A stretch of 44,211 nucleotides of DNA from a virus. Lineage: Duplodnaviria > Heunggongvirae > Uroviricota > Caudoviricetes. The position numbers and the translations under genes are program-made. Location of the stretch: IMG/VR virus record IMGVR_UViG_2917413769_000009, positions 1 through 44,211 of that record. One strand, written 5' to 3'. Below, one piece after another: positions 2,101 through 37,309 of this stretch. Under the pieces are notes generated by a model, which was given only the letters and a program-made list of their open reading frames with translations, had not been told where the DNA came from and made no database searches. Positions within the stretch are counted from its first letter, which is position 1. Every line of letters starts with the position of its first letter.

Positions 2101-2514
2101 GGTAACACTAAAAAAGTAGTGATTGCACTATCTCTGTTTGACATTGACTAACATTGTCATCGCTTCAATGAAGTACATCGTCTAACCAGGCTGTTTTAGT
2201 TGATAATTGTGACTTTATATCGCTGATTGTTGGTACAAACGGAAAAGGAATGAGACAAAAAATAACACTATTTATTCATCGAATTAATGGTAACCACAAA
2301 TTAATACAGATGCACACCATCCGAACCTAAAGAAAGATAAGCGGAAGGTTTCCTGATAGTGCCGCCAGCACCTGACAATGATCTAGTTAATTCTCACGAC
2401 TAGCGACTACTAGCACTGTCGGCATATAAAGCTCACCAGGGTATGAGGTCAGATGATGGAGAAAAGAGGCTGAGGTGATAGTTGCCGATGATACAATATC
2501 GGCAACGTGCTTTT

Positions 2515-2808
2515 TCACCCACAATTAACTAACCGCCAGACCAGCAGACATGCCACCACCGGCACAGCAAAATCCATCAGGCTTGCCACATCCCAAGCGC
2601 GCGGATCAAAACCGCCCCACCACGGCATATTCATACGCTTGCCATGCCCGAACATTTCAATCCAGCGATATTCTGCCTGGGTGTGTTCACGCGCAATGAA
2701 GAACGTACAACCGGCTATAGCACCGTAAGCCCAGTTTCCGGTAAAAAGACCAATCAGTAACTGCGCAGCCACAGCACAAAGCGCATGAAGGAAAGGTGTT
2801 ATATCCAT
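2515..2808 (-). CDS. small predicted membrane protein (97 aa), last gene of the tail-fibre operon
   Basis: ORF with strong SD (AAGGAGG) 10 nt downstream of the preceding gene. Hydrophobic segments FLHALCAVAAQLLIGLFTG and LMDFAVPVVACLLVWRLV. No recognised family. Confidence 0.5.
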   Translation of the reverse strand: MDITPFLHALCAVAAQLLIGLFTGNWAYGAIAGCTFFIAREHTQAEYRWIEMFGHGKRMNMPWWGGFDPRAWDVASLMDFAVPVVACLLVWRLVNCG

Positions 2809-2818
2809 TACTCCTCCT

Positions 2819-3523
2819 TTATCCGATATCGCTTCGGGAAGTTGATAACAACTTTAATTCTGACTCAAGTTCATCAACTCTTTCAGTCAGTTTCTGGATA
2901 TGGTGAATCAGTGGAACAACCAGACGTTCGTACATTACACCTTCGGCAACAAGGCCATTGCTGGAAATAGCTTCAGGAGCATCATTCTCGTTAGCTGGTC
3001 GCCAGTGTACAAACTGAGGGGCAATTTCTCCTAATTCCTCGGCAATCAACCCGTAGAATCCCCAGTCACGCCTGTCATTTTCGCATTGCGACCTGTACCA
3101 CACAGGGCGCATCTTGAAAATGAGATCGGCGTGCTCTGAATCTATCGTCTCTACTGAATGTTTATAGCGAATAGACGATGTTGACCGCAGTACAGACGAA
3201 ATTGCGGGGTCAGGATTAAGATAAAGGTTTGCCGCCGCTGTAGTCGTGGCCAAATTCCATAAATAAAACGCTTCTCGACCTGTCAGCGGGTAAAAATCAC
3301 CGCCATAACGACCGCTTTCCAGATCGTTCGCTTCCACTTTGTTTTTCAGCTTATTATCAACTTCAGTTTTTGTGTATCTGGTGCTGATATCCTGCTTTGC
3401 ACTGGTCATATCAATCTGAAGCGTTGATACTTTTCCGTTAATTGAGGAAATATCTTCCTTAGTTTTACTGACATCTCCCTTTAGCGTGGTGATATCTCCT
3501 GGAATTACTGTCGATGTAGCCAT
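2819..3523 (-). CDS. tail-fibre-like protein with N-terminal coiled coil and C-terminal intramolecular chaperone (peptidase S74-like) domain
   Basis: 234-aa ORF with SD GAGGAAG. C-terminal segment SIRYKHSVE...GFYGLIAEELGEIAPQFV...YERLVVPLIHHIQKLTERVDELESELKLL follows the pattern of auto-cleaving chaperone domains of tailspikes/fibres (GxIAQE-like motif followed by a coiled coil). Confidence 0.6.
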   Translation of the reverse strand: MATSTVIPGDITTLKGDVSKTKEDISSINGKVSTLQIDMTSAKQDISTRYTKTEVDNKLKNKVEANDLESGRYGGDFYPLTGREAFYLWNLATTTAAANLYLNPDPAISSVLRSTSSIRYKHSVETIDSEHADLIFKMRPVWYRSQCENDRRDWGFYGLIAEELGEIAPQFVHWRPANENDAPEAISSNGLVAEGVMYERLVVPLIHHIQKLTERVDELESELKLLSTSRSDIG

Positions 3524-3814: not shown

Positions 3815-6213
3815 TTAATACTCTCCCCCATTTGTGCCTCAGTTAATTCTTTATGCCAAATGCGTAAATTTTTCACATGACCGAACAGGTGTCTGTTGCC
3901 ACTGGATGATTGTCCACCGATATTAATATTACCGGCAGTATAACGTTGCAATGTATGCAGAGACGGGGAGCTGCTACCTAAAATTCCATCAACAACAACC
4001 TGCAACTGTTTATCTTCTGTAAACTTAAAGCCAGTAACAAATTTCCTTTTCTCTCTATTCCCATATGCTTTATATTCTGTTTTTGTTCCTTTGCCATTGG
4101 TGATAATTAGCCTTTTACCACGAGTGGTAAAACCAAAATACATATAACTTTCATCAGAAACTTCAGTCGTCGCCCCTGTAATTGAGATATTAAGCAAACG
4201 CGCAGAGCCTTCTAAATTAGGCATTTCAGAATCCCAATTAACATTAACTTCCATGAGAACACTAATTGGTGGAGTTGCCCAGTTGAAAGGTATAGGTATG
4301 ATTACCTGGTCACTTGCTCTCGTGGCACCGACCTCTGTTGTGATGATAAAAGATGAGGCGTTTAGTCCCTTTTCGAATTGAGGGGTTGTTAACATTAATT
4401 TATCGCCAGACTTGATTGATCGTTGATGTGCTCCAAACTCAAAACGCCCATACATATTTTTGGCTTCTGGTGATTTGTAGGTAAACTCAACACGAATCCA
4501 TCCATTAGACTCTCTGAATATGTTATAAGTTGCCGCCTCACCTCCAGAATAACTCAACATATCGCCAGTCTCGCAATCAATATATGCGCCAGCGGTCAGT
4601 GTGTTACTTGAGCCATCGTCGTTAACATATGATATTCTTGGACGCAACGTGATAATACCATCCCCACTTACTTTTTTAACTCTGCAGGATAAAGTAACTG
4701 ATTCATTTGCCGAAACTGAAATAACCCTGGTATATCCAGTAGAAATTAATGTCGCCCTTTCAGTTGTGGATGTTTCTTTAACGCCAAACAAACCATAACT
4801 GAAACCATACTCATCAACTCCCGTGGTAATAGTTAAGTTAGCAGTGTCATAGTTCCACGATGCTGGTGTATTCGTATAAGAAAAAGTATTCGTTCTCTGA
4901 CCTTCAATGAGCAGACCATCTTTTTCAAAACGTGGTTCATTTATCACTGATTCAGCAAAACACCCAGACTTATCTATATACGTTGCAGTTGACGCCCTGG
5001 TAAATGAAACAACCTTTTCAGACGGCAATGTAATAACATCGTCACCAACTGTGATGCTCTTATACCCAGGAGCAAACCCGGTAATCATATCCAGTGAATC
5101 GTTAAACGGTATCCACACATCAGGCAGCGGCTGTAAGACATATTTATACGGCTCTGCTGCCTGGCTTGCATACTCTCTGGCTGCGTCTTCACTTTCTTTA
5201 GCTGCCGTCTGGCTTGCAGCGGATGCTTTCGCCGAGTTCGCCGCTGCAGTCTCGCTTGTCTTTGCATTGGTTTCACTGGTTTTTGCTGCTTTTTGGCTGT
5301 TGGCTGATGCAGTGGCAGAAGCAGCCGCCGCGCTTGCAGAACCAGCTGCGGCACTCTCGCTTTGGGCTGCTGCATCCTGACTGTTTTTCGCCGCAGTTTC
5401 GCTGGCTTTGGCATTTGTTTCGCTGGTCTTCGCTGCCGCCTGGCTGGACTTTGCGTTTGTTTCGCTCGTTTTCGCGGCTTTCTGGCTGTTAGCCGCAGCT
5501 GTTGCTGATCCAGCTGCTGAAGTCGCCGAACCAGCTGCAGCATTCTCGCTTTCGGCTGCTGCATCCTGACTGCTTTTCGCCGCAGTTTCACTGGCTTTGG
5601 CATTTGTTTCGCTGGTCTTCGCTGCCGTCTGGCTGGACTTTGCGTTGGTTTCGCTCGTCTTTGCGGCTGTCTCGCTGTTTTTCGCGTTGGTTTCTGATTT
5701 TTTGGCTGCTGTCGCGGAGTTTGCCGATGCAGTCTGTGAGGTCGCTGCCGCCTGTGCGCTGTTAGCTGCATTCGTTTCTGAGGTTTTCGCCGCATTTTTC
5801 GATGATGCCGCTGCAGTTTCGGATTTCTTTGCCGCCGCTGCGCTCTGAGAGGCGGCTTCGGCGTTGCGTGCCGCTTCTTCCACCATTTCCTCAAAACGAC
5901 GCAATGCCTCAGGCATGACATCATCTTCCGTCATGGCACCGAGAAAATCATTCAGCGTACCTGGTCTGGAACCTTCATAGACGGTAATGATCCCGGCATG
6001 TGAAGGCGGAAAACCTTCAACCAGCAGGGTGACGCTGTACTGGCCATACTCAACATCCATGCTGTAACGCCCGGCTTCATCCGGATTTTCAGAGGCTACC
6101 GTGTTCACCAGTACCGTGGTGCTGTTACGCTTTGCCTTCAGTTGAATAGTGCAGTTCTGTATTGGTTTTCCCGCACCATCTTTCAGCACACCTGAGATTT
6201 TTACTGCTGCCAT
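3811..6213 (-). CDS. stf: side tail fibre protein (lambda Stf-like N-terminus, Ala/Ser/Thr-rich repeat shaft, LamG/ConA-like C-terminal domain)
   Basis: N-terminus MAAVKISGVLKDGAGKPIQNCTIQLKA...YSMDVEYGQYSV matches lambda Stf as recalled; start set at the ATG at 6213 (the ORF track starts at a GTG two codons upstream). C-terminus ...HLFGHVKNLRIWHKELTEAQM resembles the end of LamG-type jelly-roll domains. Confidence 0.85.
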   Translation of the reverse strand: MAAVKISGVLKDGAGKPIQNCTIQLKAKRNSTTVLVNTVASENPDEAGRYSMDVEYGQYSVTLLVEGFPPSHAGIITVYEGSRPGTLNDFLGAMTEDDVMPEALRRFEEMVEEAARNAEAASQSAAAAKKSETAAASSKNAAKTSETNAANSAQAAATSQTASANSATAAKKSETNAKNSETAAKTSETNAKSSQTAAKTSETNAKASETAAKSSQDAAAESENAAAGSATSAAGSATAAANSQKAAKTSETNAKSSQAAAKTSETNAKASETAAKNSQDAAAQSESAAAGSASAAAASATASANSQKAAKTSETNAKTSETAAANSAKASAASQTAAKESEDAAREYASQAAEPYKYVLQPLPDVWIPFNDSLDMITGFAPGYKSITVGDDVITLPSEKVVSFTRASTATYIDKSGCFAESVINEPRFEKDGLLIEGQRTNTFSYTNTPASWNYDTANLTITTGVDEYGFSYGLFGVKETSTTERATLISTGYTRVISVSANESVTLSCRVKKVSGDGIITLRPRISYVNDDGSSNTLTAGAYIDCETGDMLSYSGGEAATYNIFRESNGWIRVEFTYKSPEAKNMYGRFEFGAHQRSIKSGDKLMLTTPQFEKGLNASSFIITTEVGATRASDQVIIPIPFNWATPPISVLMEVNVNWDSEMPNLEGSARLLNISITGATTEVSDESYMYFGFTTRGKRLIITNGKGTKTEYKAYGNREKRKFVTGFKFTEDKQLQVVVDGILGSSSPSLHTLQRYTAGNINIGGQSSSGNRHLFGHVKNLRIWHKELTEAQMGESIK
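5200..5880. repeat. tandem imperfect coding repeats within the stf shaft
   Basis: Two near-identical blocks at about 5365-5480 and 5560-5680, giving the duplicated protein blocks AAKTSETNAKSSQ...AAKTSETNAKASETAAK(S/N)SQDAAA(E/Q)SE(N/S)AAAGSA. They generate long spurious ORFs on both strands. Confidence 0.7.
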
Positions 6214-27833: not shown

Positions 27834-28457
27834 CTAACGTGTGACCGCATTCAAAATGTTGTCTGCGATTGACTCTTCTTTGTGGCATTGCACCACCAGA
27901 GCGTCATACAGCGGCTTAACAGTGCGTGACCAGGTGGGTTGAGTAAGGTTTGGGATTAGCATCGTTACAGCGCGATATGCGGCGCTTGCTGGCATTCTTG
28001 AATAGCCGACACCTTTGCATCTTCCGCACTCTTTCTCAACAACTCTCCCCCACTGCTCTGTTTTGGCTATATCAACCGCACGGCCTGTACCGTGGCAATC
28101 TCTGCATCTTGCGCCCGGCGTCGCGGCACTACGGCAATAATCCGCATAAGCGAATGTTGCGAGCACTTGCAGTACCTTTGCCTTAGTATTTCCTTCAAGC
28201 TTTGCCACACCACGGTATTTCCCCGATACCTTGTGTGCAAATTGCATCAGATAGTTGATAGCCTTTTGTTTGTCGTTCTGGCTGAGTTCATGCTTACCGC
28301 AGAATGCAGCCATTCCGAATCCGGCTTGTGATTGCGCCATCCCCATAGCAGCCATCACATCAGTACCGGAAAGAGAGTCAGAAGCCGTAGCCCGTGGTGA
28401 GTCGCTCATCATCGGGCTTTTTGGCGAATGAAATTTAGCTACGCTTTCGAGTCTCAT
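27834..28457 (-). CDS. Q: late antiterminator Q (lambda type)
   Basis: 207 aa, [60 protein letters not shown]..., essentially lambda Q as recalled. Confidence 0.95.
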
Positions 28458-29119
28458 GCGCCTTCTCCCTGTACCTGAATCAATGTGAGATTTCCGCAGA
28501 ACACTGCCCCAGTATCGATATACATCTGGTTGGCAAATTTGAGTGGTTTCACTGCTGGCGTATGACCAAAGATAAACGTGTCCGCGCCTTTAATTTCTTT
28601 CACGATCCCGTCTTGTGAGTTGCTGATTCGTTCGCGGTTCCAGATTACCTGCTGATGATCAACTGGCTTTCCGAACTCGTATTCATCACAAGGATAATCG
28701 GCGTGGCAGATGACATATTTTTTATCTTTGCTCACCAGTTCGATGATTAACGGAAGTTCTTCTGCTTTATGGGCAAGAGCTTTAGCCAGAATTTCTTTGT
28801 CGTAATCGAGATTAAAGAACCAGCCACCGCCATTAAGCAGCCAGTGATTGACGTTTCCACGCTCTGATAAGCCATCAATCATCATGTGCTCATGGTTTCC
28901 ACGTACAGCTCTGAACCAGGGGAATGTGATTAATTCCAGGCATTCAACGTTCTCTGCACCACGATCAACCAAATCGCCAACCGAGATAAGCAGGTCTTTT
29001 TTGGTGTCGAATCCAATCGTATCCAGTTTGTTCATCAGGTTCGTGTAGCATCCGTGCAGGTCGCCAGCTACCCAAATATTTCGGTATTTGCTGCCATCAA
29101 TTCTTTCGTAGATATTCAT
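28454..29119 (-). CDS. ninI: NinI serine/threonine protein phosphatase
   Basis: 221 aa with metallophosphatase motifs GDLHG, GDLVDRG, GNHE. Confidence 0.92.
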
Positions 29120-29727
29120 GCTGCCTCACTTCTGCTGTTTCGCAGATTTTTAAGTTTCTGCTGATACTCCGCCTTGATGGCCCTGCACTCTTCGACAGTC
29201 CAGCGATGGCGGTTATGGTTTGATTCGATTTCGTCTACTGCTTCCTGCCCGATGCGATTAATCAGTTCGACGCGATACGGAACGAGATTTCCGCTTTTGT
29301 GCTGGTTGCACACCACGCATTGCTTGTGAATATTGCGTTCATCAAATCGGAGTTGAGGTGCCGCAGCAGTTGTCCGGTAATGTCCGGCATCCCACTGAGC
29401 AGACGTGAGCGTTCCGCACGAGATACATGGTAAGTCGCGGTCTCTTTCTCTGATGAAGGCGTTTACGGCTTGTTGGGCTTGTTTAATCCAGTAACTGCGG
29501 GGCTTTAAGGCGAGTTTTCGAATCTTAAGTTTATCTTTCTGTTTCTGCTCCTCTCGTCGTCGTTTCTTCTCTGCTGCTTTTTCCGCTTTTTCGCGTTCTT
29601 TGCTTCGTCGTTCGAGTGCTATCTTTGTTCCACACTCTGGAGAGCACCACCACTGATTAGCGAATGCAGGGTGAAACCATTTCCGACATTCATCGTTTTT
29701 ACATCGTCTTCGCGCTGGTTTAGCCAT
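29116..29727 (-). CDS. ninG: NinG (Rap recombination endonuclease)
   Basis: 203 aa with Cys clusters and basic coiled stretch; [33 protein letters not shown]... as in lambda NinG. Confidence 0.9.
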
Positions 29728-29896
29728 CGTCTTCTTCCTCGTACATTGAGCTATTCGGATCGCTCATCAGTTCTGCGCAGCAGTGCTCACACACGTGAAC
29801 TTCAAGCACATGCAGCTTCTGACCGCAGTTAGCGCACGTTAAAGCCCGCTCGACGCTTTCTTTCTGGTATTGAAGGGATTGGGATGGGCTAAGCAT
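29720..29896 (-). CDS. ninF: NinF
   Basis: Hand translation [58 protein letters not shown] (58 aa), lambda NinF-like; overlaps the ninG start. Confidence 0.8.
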
Positions 29897-30261
29897 TATT
29901 GGATTCTCTGCATCATGAGAAAGACAATCATGGCGGCGCGGAGGGGATTTTCATGTATAGCTCGCTTAGATTTACAGTAGGCCACACCGCGTGCACCCCA
30001 CTCGTCTTCATCGAGATTGATAATGCTAATCCTGTATTTTTCAATAATCGGCCATGCGTCTGCTGGGTTTACGCATGGGTTAAATGATCCGCGCTCAACT
30101 TCTACTTCAACTGCGTCTCCGTTTACAATGTCTCCCTCAAATGAGACAAACACCATATCGCCATTCTCACCTTCTTTGTAATCCGGTGATCCGTTATGAA
30201 TGGATTCGAATACCGCCACGTTAATTTCAAAATCACTTAACTGTGAATAATCCATTGTCAT
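29896..30261 (-). CDS. hypothetical nin-region protein (121 aa) inserted between ninE and ninF
   Basis: ORF ATGA-coupled on both sides (start overlaps ninE stop, stop overlaps ninF start); acidic, no recognised motif. Confidence 0.6.
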
Positions 30262-30434
30262 TTCCTCGCGCGTTCTCTAAGCCACCGGATATCCCACAGG
30301 TGAGCCGTGTAATTGAAGGTTTTTACGTCAGATTCTTTTGGGATTGGCTTGCGTTTATTTCTGGAGCGTTTCGTTGGAAGGTATTTGCAGTTTTCGCAGA
30401 TTATGTCGGTGATACTTCGTCGCTGTCTCGCCAC
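30258..30434 (-). CDS. ninE: NinE (GTG start)
   Basis: Hand translation (M)[66 protein letters not shown] 4 nt upstream of GTG 30432-30434; lambda NinE-like. Confidence 0.6.
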
Positions 30435-30574
30435 ACGTCCTCCTTTTCCTGCGGTAGTGGTAACACCCCTGTTGGTGTTCTTTCACACCGGAGACACCAT
30501 CGATTCCAGTAAGGTTGATTTGGTCGGAAGCGGTTATCGTCTTTGCATTCACCGCACCGATAACATCGCATCAT
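30401..30574 (-). CDS. ninD: NinD
   Basis: Start at [31 protein letters not shown]... (57 aa, zinc-ribbon-like Cys pairs); ATGA-coupled to ninC. Confidence 0.75.
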
Positions 30575-31443
30575 GCAGCTTCCCTCCCGAAGTCGAAATA
30601 AAGCTGCCCTCCAAATATTTCGCATGACTCAGAACAAGAGCCGGTATCGAATCTTTTAGCTCGTACCATGTCCTGATACAGGGCTTGATAATCATTTTCT
30701 GAATACATTTTCGCGATACCATCCAGCGACATTCTTCCTCGGTACATAATCTCCTTTGGTGTTTCCCGATGTCCGTCACGCACATGCGATCCCGTGATGA
30801 CCTCATTAAAAACACGCTGCAATCCCTCCTCATCTTTGCAGGCAAGTCCGATTTTTTGCGTTGATTTTTTAATGCAGAATATGCAGTTACCGAGATGTTC
30901 CGGTATTTGCAAATCGAATGGTTGTTGCTTCCACCATGCGAGGATATCTTCCTTCTCAAAGTCTGACAGTTCAGCAAGATATCTGATTCCAGGCTTTGGC
31001 TTTAGCCGCTTCGGTTCATCAGCTCTGATTCCAATCCACGTGGTGTAATTCCCTCGCCCGAAATGGTCATCACAGTATTTGGTGAAGGGAACGAGTTTTA
31101 ATCTGTCAGTGCAGAACGCGCCGCCGACGTATGGAGTGCCATATTTCTTTACCATATCGATAAATGGCTTCAGAACAGGCATTTTCGTCTGAATATCCTT
31201 TGGTTCCCATACCGTATAACCATTTGGCTGTCCAGGCTCTGGATTGATATCAACCTGCAATACGGTGAGCGGTATATCCCAGAACTTCACAACTTCCCTG
31301 ACAAACCGATATGTCATTGGATGTTCACAACCTGTATCCATGAAAACGTAATGCACGTCTTCACCTGCCTGTCGCTTTTGCTCCATTAGCCAGAGCAAAT
31401 ATGCTGACGTCCTGCCACCGGAGAAACTAACGACATTTATCAT
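30571..31443 (-). CDS. ninC: NinC (PAPS reductase-like)
   Basis: 290 aa from [24 protein letters not shown]...; the SGGxxS PP-loop motif; lambda NinC-like. Confidence 0.9.
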
Positions 31444-31880
31444 GCAGCCCTGTCTCCCCATCTTGCTTTCCACTCCAGAGCCAGTCGCGCTTCGTCTGAC
31501 CACTTAACGCCACGCTCTGTACCAAATGCCTGTATAAGCTCTAATAGCTCCGCAAATTCGCTTACACGCATCCTGCTGGTTGACTGGCCTATTACCACAA
31601 AGCCATTCCCGGCAAGGTTAGGAACAACGTCCTGCTGCTTTAATGCTGCTGTAAAAACGCACTTCCAGCTTTCTGTATCCAGCCAGCGACCATGCCATTC
31701 AACCTGACGCGAGACGTCACCAAGGCAAGCCCAAAGTTTCCGATTTTGGTCTAAGCTGCGGTTACGTTCCTGAATGGTTACTACGATTGGTTTGGTTGGG
31801 TCTGGAAGGATTTGCTGTACTGCGTGAATAGCGTTTTGCTGATGTGCTGGAGATCGAATTTCAAAGGTCAGTTTTTTCAT
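31440..31880 (-). CDS. ninB: NinB (recombination mediator)
   Basis: 146 aa from MKKLTFEIRSPAHQQNAIHAVQQILPDPTKPIVVTIQERNRSLDQNRKLWACLGDVSRQVEWHG..., near-identical to lambda NinB as recalled. Confidence 0.9.
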   Translation of the reverse strand: MKKLTFEIRSPAHQQNAIHAVQQILPDPTKPIVVTIQERNRSLDQNRKLWACLGDVSRQVEWHGRWLDTESWKCVFTAALKQQDVVPNLAGNGFVVIGQSTSRMRVSEFAELLELIQAFGTERGVKWSDEARLALEWKARWGDRAA

Positions 31881-31896: not shown

Positions 31897-31928
31897 AAAT
31901 AAAAAGGCCTGCGATTACCAGCAGGCCT
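31897..31928 (-). terminator. tR2-like rho-independent terminator between the replication and nin genes
   Basis: Minus-strand AGGCCUGC-UGGUAAUC-GCAGGCCU followed by UUUUAUUU. Confidence 0.55.
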
Positions 31929-31953: not shown

Positions 31954-33330
31954 TCATACGTCAGCCCCTTGTGCATATCGTCTGCCACGTGCAGCAGGTG
32001 CATTTGATGCTGTGCAAATCTGTCTGGCTTCATCCTGGTCACATGCAACAAAGTGTCCGTTGCAGAACCGCTGGTAAACCGTACCAAGTGAGCCAAAACG
32101 GTTTTTCGTCACGATGATTTCAGCAAATGGCGCGGCGCTACTGTTCTCGTCATATACTGCTTCCCGATAGAGCATGATGATTGAGTCTGCGTCCTGTTCA
32201 ATGCTTCCTGAATCACGCAAATCTGCGTTTGTCGGGCGTTTGTTTGGTCGCTTCTCAACATCGCGCGAAAGCTGACTCAGGGAGATAACAGGCGTTTTCA
32301 GGTCTTTCGCCATCGCCTTAAGGCTTCCTGAGATGTGAGCAATTGCGAGGTCGTTGCGGTCTGCTTTCGGCTTCTCAATCAGGCCAAGATAATCCACCAT
32401 GATTAGTGACAGGTTTGGATTTTCCTGTTTGTGCCGTTCTGCGATTGAGCGTATTTCTTCGACCGATAACCGCGAGGCATCGACCACCCATACATCCAAA
32501 TCTGCAAGCTGACTCATGCCGTTAGCAACGCGCGCCCAGCCTTCGTCATCCATCGATGCAGGATTTCGCAGCACGCTAACCGACATCCTCCCGGCGTTGG
32601 CGATGCTTCGCTCTGCAATCTGCAATGCGCTCATTTCCATCGAGAAAATCAACACTCCGCGCCGGACGTCAGAACCAGGAATAACGCGGCTTGCAACGCC
32701 TTCGGCAATCTTCAGCGCCAGTTCGGTTTTCCCCATACCAGGACGAGCAGCGATTATCACCAGGTCTTCTGCGTTCATCCCTCCGGTGATGGCATCAAGT
32801 TCTTCGATTCCGGTCTTCAGGGTATCTGACTCTTCTCCGTTCCTCAGACGCCTGTCAAGCGTGTCAGTGTAGTCAGTGATGATTTCCCCTAACCGCACCG
32901 GTTTAACCTCGTCACGGGGCTTTCTGATGGCTGAAAGACGCTTTACAAGTTCATCCATCGCCTGACTCGATGCGTCGATGGTTCCGCTCTGAATTGGTTC
33001 ACGCATTTCATCCATGATTTCCAGCACCAGACGGCGGTGATAGTTATCCGCGACCATTCCGGCATATCCCTTCAGGTTTGCGGCACTCGGGCAGTTTTTG
33101 CTGGTCATCAGGATTGACGTGAAATGCTCCTCTCCGCATTCCTCAGCAACCATCAGCGCGTCGATTAGGTTTCTGTTTCTCGCCTGCTTGCGGATAACCT
33201 CGAAGGCTTTCCGGTAGAGCGGAATTGAAAACGCTTCCGGCTCAAGCGTTGCCAGAACGTCACTGGCGGTTGGAGTTAATCCACCAATCAGCAGGCCACC
33301 GATAACGCTCGCTTCGATATCCTGTCTCAT
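31954..33330 (-). CDS. DnaB-family replicative helicase
   Basis: 458 aa with Walker A GMGKT, Walker B IMVDYLG and the C-terminal RecA-like core; in the position of lambda P. Confidence 0.92.
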
Positions 33331-34148
33331 GCAATCCCCCTGTCTGCAAACTTCCCTTCCCGAACTCCCGTTAACGAGTCTTCCCTCAACAGGTAATCAA
33401 AATCAGCCGTCCAGCCCGTGTCGTTGTCTCCGAAGTAAAACGGCTTGGCCTGATGCACAAACGCCCTGACATACGCTCTGAAACCGTCTACGTTTGGCGT
33501 TTTCAGTTGTGGGATGATTTTCTTCAGGCGGCGTTTTCGTTTCTCGTTGACCGCAACAGCGTGTGGAAGTCTGTCACCGACTTCGGTGTTGTAGGCGTTC
33601 AGGAAGGATTCGTAGTCGATTCGTTCTGCCTTGCGACGTTCAGGTTTAACCTGCCCATCGCCGCCCCCGTTAGGGGGTAAGGGGGTATTTGTATTTATTG
33701 TCTTTTGTATATTGTCTTTTGTGTTTAGCTGACTTGGCTTATACCCATTAGCCGACTCGGCTAATGTTTTATTAGCTGTTTTAGCTAATGTTAAGCTGTC
33801 CTGGCTAATCCACTGAGAAACCACCTTGTTCACTCCTATTTTCACGCCATCAGCAATGAGGAATTTACGCTCAATAAGCTGGCGCTTGGCAGCGCAAACA
33901 TGAGTGTGATGAATACCTGTCATGGCTGCTATCTGCGTATTTGTGAGTCGATCCATCGGCTTATTGAATCCGTATGTCTTGCGCATGATAGCGAGCATCA
34001 CCTTCAACTGCCGGACGGTTAAATCAGCCATCAGCAGACTGTCGGTAATCTCGTTAGCAACGCGCATGAAACCATCTTCGGTATCTGCCACGCGATGCTC
34101 CACGACCTCCAGTTGAGGCCTGTAATCAGCTAACTTAACGACGCCCAT
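33327..34148 (-). CDS. O: replication initiator (O-like)
   Basis: 273 aa with ori iterons inside the coding sequence and a proline/glycine linker ([10 protein letters not shown]); ATGA-coupled to the helicase gene. Confidence 0.88.
33685..33808. other. origin of replication: four iterons (consensus TTAGCYGAYTYGGCTAA) followed by an AT-rich tract, inside O
   Basis: Iterons at 33725-33741, 33748-33764, 33772-33788, 33791-33808, each an inverted repeat; AT-rich tract 33685-33724; same architecture as lambda ori. Confidence 0.65.
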
Positions 34149-35061: not shown

Positions 35062-35778
<717 letters not shown>

Positions 35779-35864: not shown

Positions 35865-36443
35865 TTGAGTATACCAACTGTCTCTCTATGGAATGAGATG
35901 GGGTTAATCCCCCCAATAGACGAGGCTGATCCTACAAGCCATACTCGTTCCCCATACAAAATGGATATAGTACGCTTTGTTAGTACTTTTTCGCTTAGCC
36001 CTGCAAGGATTAAAATCCTTAAGGGTTTTCTTAATTTTCGTGTTTCACTCACTCAAGCAGGGCTGGTTGAAGGTTTTCAGTGGGTAGATGGAAGCTTCAC
36101 AGAACATATTGAACTTATTGAAAAAAGGCCACCGAATGATGTCGATGTTGTGACCTTTTTTCAATTCAGTAATGGCGATAATGATGCAATCGTAATCGGT
36201 AGAAAGCCAGAGCTATTTGATCATGATTTTGTTAAGAAGGAGTTTTTCGTAGATTCCTACTTCCAAGAACTTAATCTACCAAGTCATGAGCTTGTTGAAA
36301 TGACTGTATATTGGTACAGTATGTGGGCACATAGACGCGATCTGTCGTGGAAGGGATTTATCCAAATCCCGTTAAACCCACAACTTGATGTTGTGGCAAT
36401 GACTATACTTAATTCGGCTGCTACTGAGGGGGTCAAACAATGA
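35865..36443 (+). CDS. hypothetical protein A of the cI-linked two-gene cassette (rexA position); possible nucleotidyltransferase-like fold
   Basis: 192-aa ORF from a TTG start (AAGG 7 nt upstream), or 181 aa from the ATG at 35898. Not hydrophobic; motif GFQWVDGSF-x14-DVDVV. Confidence 0.7.
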   Translation: MSIPTVSLWNEMGLIPPIDEADPTSHTRSPYKMDIVRFVSTFSLSPARIKILKGFLNFRVSLTQAGLVEGFQWVDGSFTEHIELIEKRPPNDVDVVTFFQFSNGDNDAIVIGRKPELFDHDFVKKEFFVDSYFQELNLPSHELVEMTVYWYSMWAHRRDLSWKGFIQIPLNPQLDVVAMTILNSAATEGVKQ

Positions 36444-37309
36444 ATCGTAATGATTATGTTTTCGCTCTCAGTGAGCGCGAGCAAATAAGTAATCTATTAA
36501 AAAATATGCCAACAAGTCATTCTATTAGCCGAAAAAGCTTAGAAGACCGTCTGGAGAAAGTTGAGCGATTAATTTCACAAGCTGACGTTCGAGAACATGA
36601 ACCTACGCATGCTGTGTTAACTTTTAGAGGCCCAACAGTAGTTGGCACGCATGGCATTTCAGCAGTATTTGGAACAAAAGCTATATCTTGTTTTAATGAT
36701 GCAATAGCTTACTTGGCAACCTCTTTCAATGGCCCACTTCCTGCATCAGGCAAGATACCAAACATAGAAAATAATCATCTCATGATTACCGCGTCAGCCC
36801 GTGGTTCTTTCGGATTCGTACTTGAAGAGTTTAGACCTGATGCTCCTCTTGAATTCGATGAAGAAACCCCAGTAGCAAAAGCTATTAATAAGGCCAGAAA
36901 AATATTTCAGGCAAGCTTGGATAATGATGATGAAGAATTGTCTGATGCTATAGAAAACTTAGACTCTCGGGCCTTAGATAAAATCAGAGCGTTCATTCAT
37001 TATCTGCATGAAAATAAAACAGTTTTTACACTTAAAAGCCAAGGTTTTAGCATCGTTTTTAGAGAGCCAAAACAGCTTGAAGCTGTATATCAACATCTCA
37101 GCAATGATAATATTCAGCAGGAAAAAATTATTGAGAACGTTATATTTTTGGGAACTCTTCCTAACAAGCGCCAATGTGAATTTATAGTTTTAGGTAACAC
37201 TGATATCAGAACCGCTAGCATTGACAAAGCTGTAGATGACCCAGATATTATAAACAAGCACTTAGGAAGCGTTGCAACAGCCACGTTCCTGAAAAAAAAC
37301 TGTTGGTAA
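36440..37309 (+). CDS. hypothetical protein B of the cI-linked two-gene cassette (rexB position)
   Basis: 289-aa ORF, ATG overlaps the stop of gene A (ATGA), SD GAGGGGG; AT-rich; no TM segments; the only motif noted is R-x6-H (RAFIHYLH) in a helical stretch. Confidence 0.7.
   Translation: MNRNDYVFALSEREQISNLLKNMPTSHSISRKSLEDRLEKVERLISQADVREHEPTHAVLTFRGPTVVGTHGISAVFGTKAISCFNDAIAYLATSFNGPLPASGKIPNIENNHLMITASARGSFGFVLEEFRPDAPLEFDEETPVAKAINKARKIFQASLDNDDEELSDAIENLDSRALDKIRAFIHYLHENKTVFTLKSQGFSIVFREPKQLEAVYQHLSNDNIQQEKIIENVIFLGTLPNKRQCEFIVLGNTDIRTASIDKAVDDPDIINKHLGSVATATFLKKNCW

Follow-up and report, generated by a model that had tools for sequence, protein, structure and literature searches.

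The gene ninX received its name some 25 years ago in phage P22, where it lies in the gene order ninD-ninE-ninX-ninF-ninG, while in phage lambda the slot between ninE and ninF is empty. In nin regions, neighbouring genes as a rule share bases between stop and start codons (PMC8022706). We analysed a 44,211-nucleotide stretch of DNA (hereafter the window) from a lambdoid phage (Caudoviricetes), IMG/VR record IMGVR_UViG_2917413769_000009, in which an open reading frame (ORF) at positions 29896..30261 of the minus strand separates ninE from ninF. An initial annotation had described this ORF as an extra gene. Homology identifies it as ninX in its canonical slot, hence as an already known gene in a known position. 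The locus as a whole is in all likelihood explained by a NinX protein of Pfam family PF10765, encoded at the usual place in a lambda-like nin region, expressed from the pR promoter and coupled to its neighbours.

The ORF product matched PF10765 (Phage_P22_NinX, formerly DUF2591) with 68.1 bits against a cut-off of 22.6, and the match covered the full profile (residues 4-118 on profile positions 1-114 of 114). It also matched PHROG 444, which has no function assigned there. In a tblastn search against the annotated P22 ninX, the identity was 48.3% over 98% of the query (E=7e-19). The protein aligned to P22 NinX and no alternative conserved frame was seen. Three motifs that reach 90% conservation or more across 376 aligned members of the family also occur in the window protein: an N-terminal Y-x3-SDFEIN, a central C-x-NP-x-DAWPII and a C-terminal motif. 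The two proteins thus share family, size, motifs, position between ninE and ninF and coupling through overlapping codons, and no evidence contradicted the identification. Since the P22 gene order places ninX at this very site, the extra gene is a canonical P22 gene. The two NinX alleles diverge in both of the variable β segments (about positions 22-59 and 81-104), and the two phages differ in the rest of the region: the window carries a lambda-type nin region (NinC and NinI, but no NinY, NinZ or NinH) whereas P22 has its own set. That the region is otherwise lambda-like, with ninB, C, D, E, F, G and I, had been recognised initially and was borne out both by Pfam matches and by the alignment with lambda, in which the 4.2-kb nin stretch is 97% identical over 89% of its length, ninX falling within the uncovered part.

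The ORF is indeed acidic and tightly coupled to both neighbours, as first described. Its product contains 21 aspartates and glutamates against 10 lysines and arginines (isoelectric point (pI) 4.42, net charge -11), and is a soluble, stand-alone, acidic protein of 13.5 kDa. The end of ninE reads AGG AAA TGA, so that its stop codon and the first ninX ATG overlap as ATGA (30261-30258, minus strand). At the other end, the last A of the ninX TAA stop doubles as the first base of the ninF ATG (TAATG, 29898-29894). The length of 121 amino acids given at first holds for translation from this first ATG. However, a GAGG Shine-Dalgarno sequence lies 7 nucleotides upstream of a second ATG (30255) and only 2 nucleotides from the first one. 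Among the 376 aligned members, 84% begin at the position of the second methionine and 94% are gapped at position 1, and the product assigned to the same allele by the Prokaryotic Genome Annotation Pipeline (PGAP) has 119 amino acids. Because Shine-Dalgarno spacing, family N-termini and the PGAP call all favour the second ATG, the true start is probably this one and the product 119 amino acids long (29896-30255).

A sequence scan found no convincing promoter before ninX. A terminator scan detected an intrinsic hairpin upstream of ninB on the minus strand (31905..31928; 8-bp stem, 6 of whose pairs are GC, then a run of T), which, from its position and from established knowledge of lambda, we take to be the equivalent of tR2. 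As no promoter precedes it, ninX appears to belong to the delayed-early pR transcript and not to be an independently transcribed moron. We infer that its expression, as a delayed-early gene of the pR operon, depends on N antitermination: once N lets transcription from pR pass the terminator preceding ninB, ninX would be transcribed along with the rest of the nin genes. Its translation is coupled to that of its neighbours.

The presence of ninX here does not represent an unusual insertion, as the term extra gene had implied. Besides its P22 position, NinX is found in thousands of prophage protein clusters and in 623 phage GenBank records, of which Vibrio phages account for more than half. An exhaustive hidden Markov model (HMM) search yielded 2,032 clusters at 50% identity, and more than 7,000 were found at 90% identity. 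The best 150 of the 2,032 representatives are stand-alone proteins of 85-170 amino acids without fused domains, with a single match in 149 of them, the typical family size being about 100-135 amino acids. The distribution encompasses phages of Escherichia and Salmonella, Vibrio, Pseudoalteromonas, Klebsiella and Hafnia as well as marine metagenomes, and the gene recurs in an accessory cluster between the replication and late genes of unrelated phages. NinX is among the more widespread phage families without an assigned function, some 25 years after it was named. The initial annotation had envisaged that the ORF might turn out to be a common nin-region protein with a known function unrelated to host interaction; homology searches showed it to be a common nin-region protein, to which no known function is attached.

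Closer to the window, ninX is carried by lambdoid coliphages whose nin backbone is 97% identical (HK446, HK106, mEp234, HK544, IME10 and APC_JM3.2). Most of these coliphages and of the Escherichia coli prophages with NinX differ from the window in having ninH and other NinX alleles (66-82% identity), whereas the prophage of E. coli NS-NP030 has the same order, NinE-NinX-NinF-NinG-phosphatase, without NinH. The nearest protein cluster (97% identity, 119 amino acids, 786 member sequences) bears the NCBI name "phage protein NinX family protein"; the window allele (97-98% identity) is common and already annotated as NinX by PGAP. Of 80 IMG/VR loci whose allele is this one or similar to it, 76 showed the order NinE-NinX-NinF and the other four were without one flank in the tblastn table; all these loci are near-identical E. 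coli prophages only, and so inform on local order and not on distant context. In Vibrio phages with NinX, a 346-amino-acid protein (locus positions 2199-3239, plus strand) with a faint PAPS_reduct, NinC-like match is encoded about 800 bp upstream of NinX, so that NinC-like genes and NinX co-occur outside enterobacterial lambdoid phages. We also noted in Logan assemblies a predicted NinE-NinX fusion (P0001, 179 amino acids, PF05322 plus PF10765; 13 member sequences, 2 contigs), whose NinX part is 98% identical to that of the window. Most likely, a single-base difference or error within the ATGA overlap has joined the two reading frames.

The second feature pointed out at first, the absence of ninH with ninG running directly into ninI, was confirmed. 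The stop codon of ninG shares an ATGA with the start codon of ninI (29116..29119, minus strand) at the site that ninH occupies in lambda and P22, as established by alignment with lambda and NS-NP030. In the lambda alignment the ninH cassette is cleanly missing from the window, together with the part of it that overlaps ninI, while its flanks align. We searched 5,426 complete E. coli genomes with a 121-nucleotide probe spanning the ninG|ninI junction and found it at a probe coverage of at least 80% in 809 of them, about one in seven. Among the 44 best-covered rows within an evenly spaced sample of the coverage ranking, the junction was uninterrupted and annotated NinG followed by phosphatase in 41, many from O157:H7, and split by a NinH gene in 3. 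The arrangement lacking ninH is therefore common. We considered whether NinX could be a functional replacement for NinH and rejected it, as most loci with the window's NinX allele carry NinH and P22 has both. Comparison of these loci indicates that ninX and ninH vary independently and that loss of ninH is ordinary module mosaicism.

The slot between ninE and ninF behaves likewise. Empty in lambda, it holds NinX in the window, and in a prophage of E. coli A3 (NZ_CP028771) it is occupied by an unrelated hypothetical protein of 133 amino acids, WP_024190674.1 (PHROG 1511, no Pfam family; locus coordinates 3830-4231, minus strand), and not by NinX. The ninG|ninI junction of this prophage is 100% identical to that of the window. 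The occurrence of an unrelated ORF in this slot marks the ninE|ninF boundary as a site of cassette exchange. Both the gene and its position illustrate textbook lambdoid mosaicism, with ninX filling, in P22 as in many coliphages, a slot that is empty in lambda, and with a ninH cassette that some phages have and others lack. For this window in itself, the finding of ninX matters little.

In order to describe the protein further, we modelled its structure and examined its conservation. A profile built from six diverse phage NinX sequences barely broadened the range of the matches listed, and the diversity of the alignment was obtained by using a Vibrio phage member as a separate query. With the modelling alignment of 92 sequences (31-97% identity), AlphaFold2 returned a model with a predicted local distance difference test score of 92.6 and a predicted template-modelling score of 0.84. 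It comprises helices at residues 10-22, 66-75 and 106-120 and strands at 28-30, 36-46, 49-60, 79-84, 87-94 and 97-103. The predicted fold is, with high confidence, an α-β3-α-β3-α three-layer sandwich. The closest solved structures are 4PUP, from Burkholderia cenocepacia J2315, and 1R7L, a Bacillus cereus prophage protein, both uncharacterised proteins from structural genomics. The model can be superimposed on 1R7L with the same three-layer order, but the two structures are only 14-16% identical to NinX, so that the match gives a fold and no mechanism. In Pfam, 1R7L serves as type structure for PF18066 (Phage ABA sandwich domain). The PF18066 HMM did not match the window NinX, and 2 of the 92 relatives gave sub-threshold matches (best E=0.02); a relation between the two families would hold at the fold or superfamily level only. 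Sequence searches of the PDB, with the single protein or the 92-sequence profile, gave no meaningful match and the profile did not detect 1R7L or 4PUP. Fold matches in BFVD were all to unnamed or uncharacterised proteins.

Conservation among the 376 members is bipartite. Helix N-caps and inner faces are strongly conserved, and residues conserved at 90% or more form three groups: Tyr5, Ser9, Asp10, Glu12, Ile13, Asn14 and Val17 at the N-terminus; Cys63 (99%), Asn65, Pro66, Asp68, Ala69, Trp70, Pro71, Ile72, Ile73 and Ile78 in the centre; and Asn105, Pro106, Leu107, Arg108, Ala109, Ala110, Met111, Ile112, Leu115 and Met117 at the C-terminus. The β segments, in contrast, are variable (positions 22-59 and 81-104), gap-rich and swapped between alleles: the window NinX has its first hairpin in common with the NinX of APC_JM3.2 and not the second sheet, with the reverse pattern for P22. 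A membrane role for the C-terminal AAMIVFLMM segment was discarded, as it is too short and is modelled with high confidence as the last packed helix.

No function for NinX is recorded in Pfam, PHROGs, NCBIfam, PADLOC, the PDB, BFVD or the searchable literature, PADLOC and NCBIfam giving no match at all. The literature holds mentions in genome annotations only, and we found there no functional data, partner, ligand or phenotype. Our best proposal, which we put forward tentatively, is that NinX acts as a stoichiometric binder through one conserved site. This site might be formed by the nearly invariant residues with which the three helices begin (Tyr5, Ser9-Asp10 and Asn14; Cys63, Asn65-Pro66, Asp68 and Trp70; Asn105-Pro-Leu-Arg108). 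The partner, the same in different hosts, could be a small ligand or a macromolecule (a core DNA-metabolism protein or another host protein); such a conserved target is suggested by the polar invariants, which hold across enterobacterial, Vibrio and Pseudoalteromonas phages and marine metagenomic contigs. On this view NinX would be an accessory to phage DNA metabolism or to the takeover of the host, one that the phage can dispense with, and would not bind DNA.

Several observations weigh against this proposal. The residues of the putative site were grouped from sequence and secondary structure, their spatial clustering being assumed, and S-x-x-E, N-P-x-D and N-P-L-R are typical helix N-capping motifs that could be purely structural. 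The closest structures are themselves uncharacterised, and no source searched provided a partner, ligand or phenotype. In addition, the gene context of NinX is not fixed outside lambdoid phages, which makes guilt by association weak. The mechanistic part of the proposal is accordingly weak. It is unlikely, though conceivable, that NinX founds a class of its own among host-takeover or counter-defence factors and uses the helix-start site to bind either a small signalling molecule or a host protein that is conserved; if true, this would be a discovery about the whole NinX family and not about this window. The fold model and the sharply defined invariant residues make NinX an easy target for directed experiments.

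More specific roles, in counter-defence or in recombination and replication, overlap with the one-site binder model. As the initial annotation had suggested, NinX might be an early anti-restriction or other anti-immunity protein, blocking a host defence protein or mimicking or sequestering its substrate or signal. The protein is small and strongly acidic (pI 4.4, and a median net charge of -10 in the family), it would be made from an early operon, and by analogy with nin deletions it would be dispensable. The mosaic ninE|ninF slot with its alternative contents and the hypervariable β segments exchanged between alleles also agree with such a role, as do DNA-modification genes in adjacent slots (a NinC resembling phosphoadenosine phosphosulfate (PAPS) reductase, or a Dam-type methyltransferase replacing NinC). 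These features are generic only, those of a small, acidic, early-expressed protein in a mosaic accessory slot. T7 Ocr and ArdA, which are likewise small, acidic phage or plasmid proteins expressed early, offer a functional analogy, but no sequence or fold similarity to NinX was found, and these elongated helical DNA mimics are unlike the compact α/β sandwich of NinX. More generally, no homology or fold match linked NinX to characterised inhibitors (Ocr, ArdA, Acr, Tad, Acb, Gad and others), known anti-defence proteins were not matched by fold or sequence in the PDB and BFVD searches, and the anti-defence literature searched did not mention NinX. Moreover, a broad phage distribution and near-invariant polar residues are more readily reconciled with a conserved target than with a defence system that varies between strains. 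Overall we found no direct support for a counter-defence role and give it a low probability.

We assign a similarly low probability to a recombination, replication or repair accessory that would act with or modulate NinB/Orf, NinG/Rap or a conserved host DNA-metabolism protein. NinX does recur in unrelated phages beside genes for NinB, NinG, NinH, a DnaB-type helicase, DNA polymerase, methyltransferase or HNH endonuclease, and its strong conservation across hosts fits a conserved partner. However, no strict co-occurrence with any neighbour was seen, lambda having NinB and NinG without NinX, and NinX occurring in Vibrio and marine phages with neither NinB nor NinG in the vicinity. Its acidic charge speaks against a direct contact with DNA, and no experimental data were found for this role. 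It is highly improbable that NinX binds double-stranded RNA or another nucleic acid through a fold of the double-stranded RNA-binding domain type: its secondary structure accommodates the α-β-β-β-α topology of that domain, but the basic RNA-contact motifs and positive face are lacking in this acidic protein and no lysine-rich motif is conserved in the family. Finally, although many long shadow ORFs exist in the window, it is all but excluded that the ninX ORF arose by chance or is a pseudogene without functional product, given its full-length Pfam match, thousands of conserved homologues with consistent start, stop and motifs, the high-confidence fold prediction and codon overlaps typical of nin genes; homology (Pfam E=1e-18 and the 2,032 clusters at 50% identity) marks it as a real gene.

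The neighbouring nin genes, all on the minus strand, were accepted when above the curated Pfam cut-offs. Upstream of ninX lie ninB/orf, encoding the recombination mediator (31440..31880; PF05772 NinB, 184 bits), ninC, a PAPS-reductase-like gene of 290 codons from an internal methionine (30571..31443; PF01507 PAPS_reduct), lambda NinC also having 290 amino acids, ninD (30401..30574; 57 amino acids from an internal methionine; PF17466 NinD, 139 bits, on residues 18-74 of the longer ORF) and ninE (30258..30434; 58 amino acids; PF05322 NinE, 150 bits). Downstream follow ninF (29720..29896; 58 amino acids; PF05810 NinF, 47 bits), ninG/rap, which codes for a member of a junction-specific endonuclease family (29116..29727; 203 amino acids; PF05766 NinG, 304 bits), ninI, for a Ser/Thr phosphatase (28454..29119; 221 amino acids; PF00149 Metallophos and the lambda NinI annotation), and the late-gene antiterminator gene Q (27834..28457; PF03589 Antiterm, 192 bits). 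No RNA family or tRNA was found within the window.

The replication module does not consist of lambda O and P. It comprises a DnaB-type helicase of 458 amino acids (31954-33330, minus strand) and a 273-amino-acid initiator (33327-34148, minus strand), and resembles those of HK544 and Stx2 phages; P22 gene 12 also encodes a helicase. The ren gene is absent between the helicase gene and ninB. The early-left recombination module is of the P22 and not the lambda type (39569-41090, plus strand), with a Rad52/Erf-like annealase (39569-40276), a phage single-stranded DNA-binding protein (40277-40783) and the anti-RecBCD protein Abc2 (40797-41090; PF11043, 207 bits). Its presence makes the window a lambda/P22 mosaic outside the nin region too. 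The position of lambda rexA/rexB, just downstream of a gene for a cI-like S24 repressor (35065-35778, plus strand), is occupied by two overlapping ORFs of the plus strand. The first (35865-36443) encodes a 192-amino-acid DUF6932 protein that also matches the PADLOC candidate defence family PDC-M63A (E=2e-10), and the second (36440-37309) a protein of 289 amino acids belonging to PHROG 18731, without a Pfam domain. This pair is possibly a prophage-encoded defence pair expressed with the repressor.
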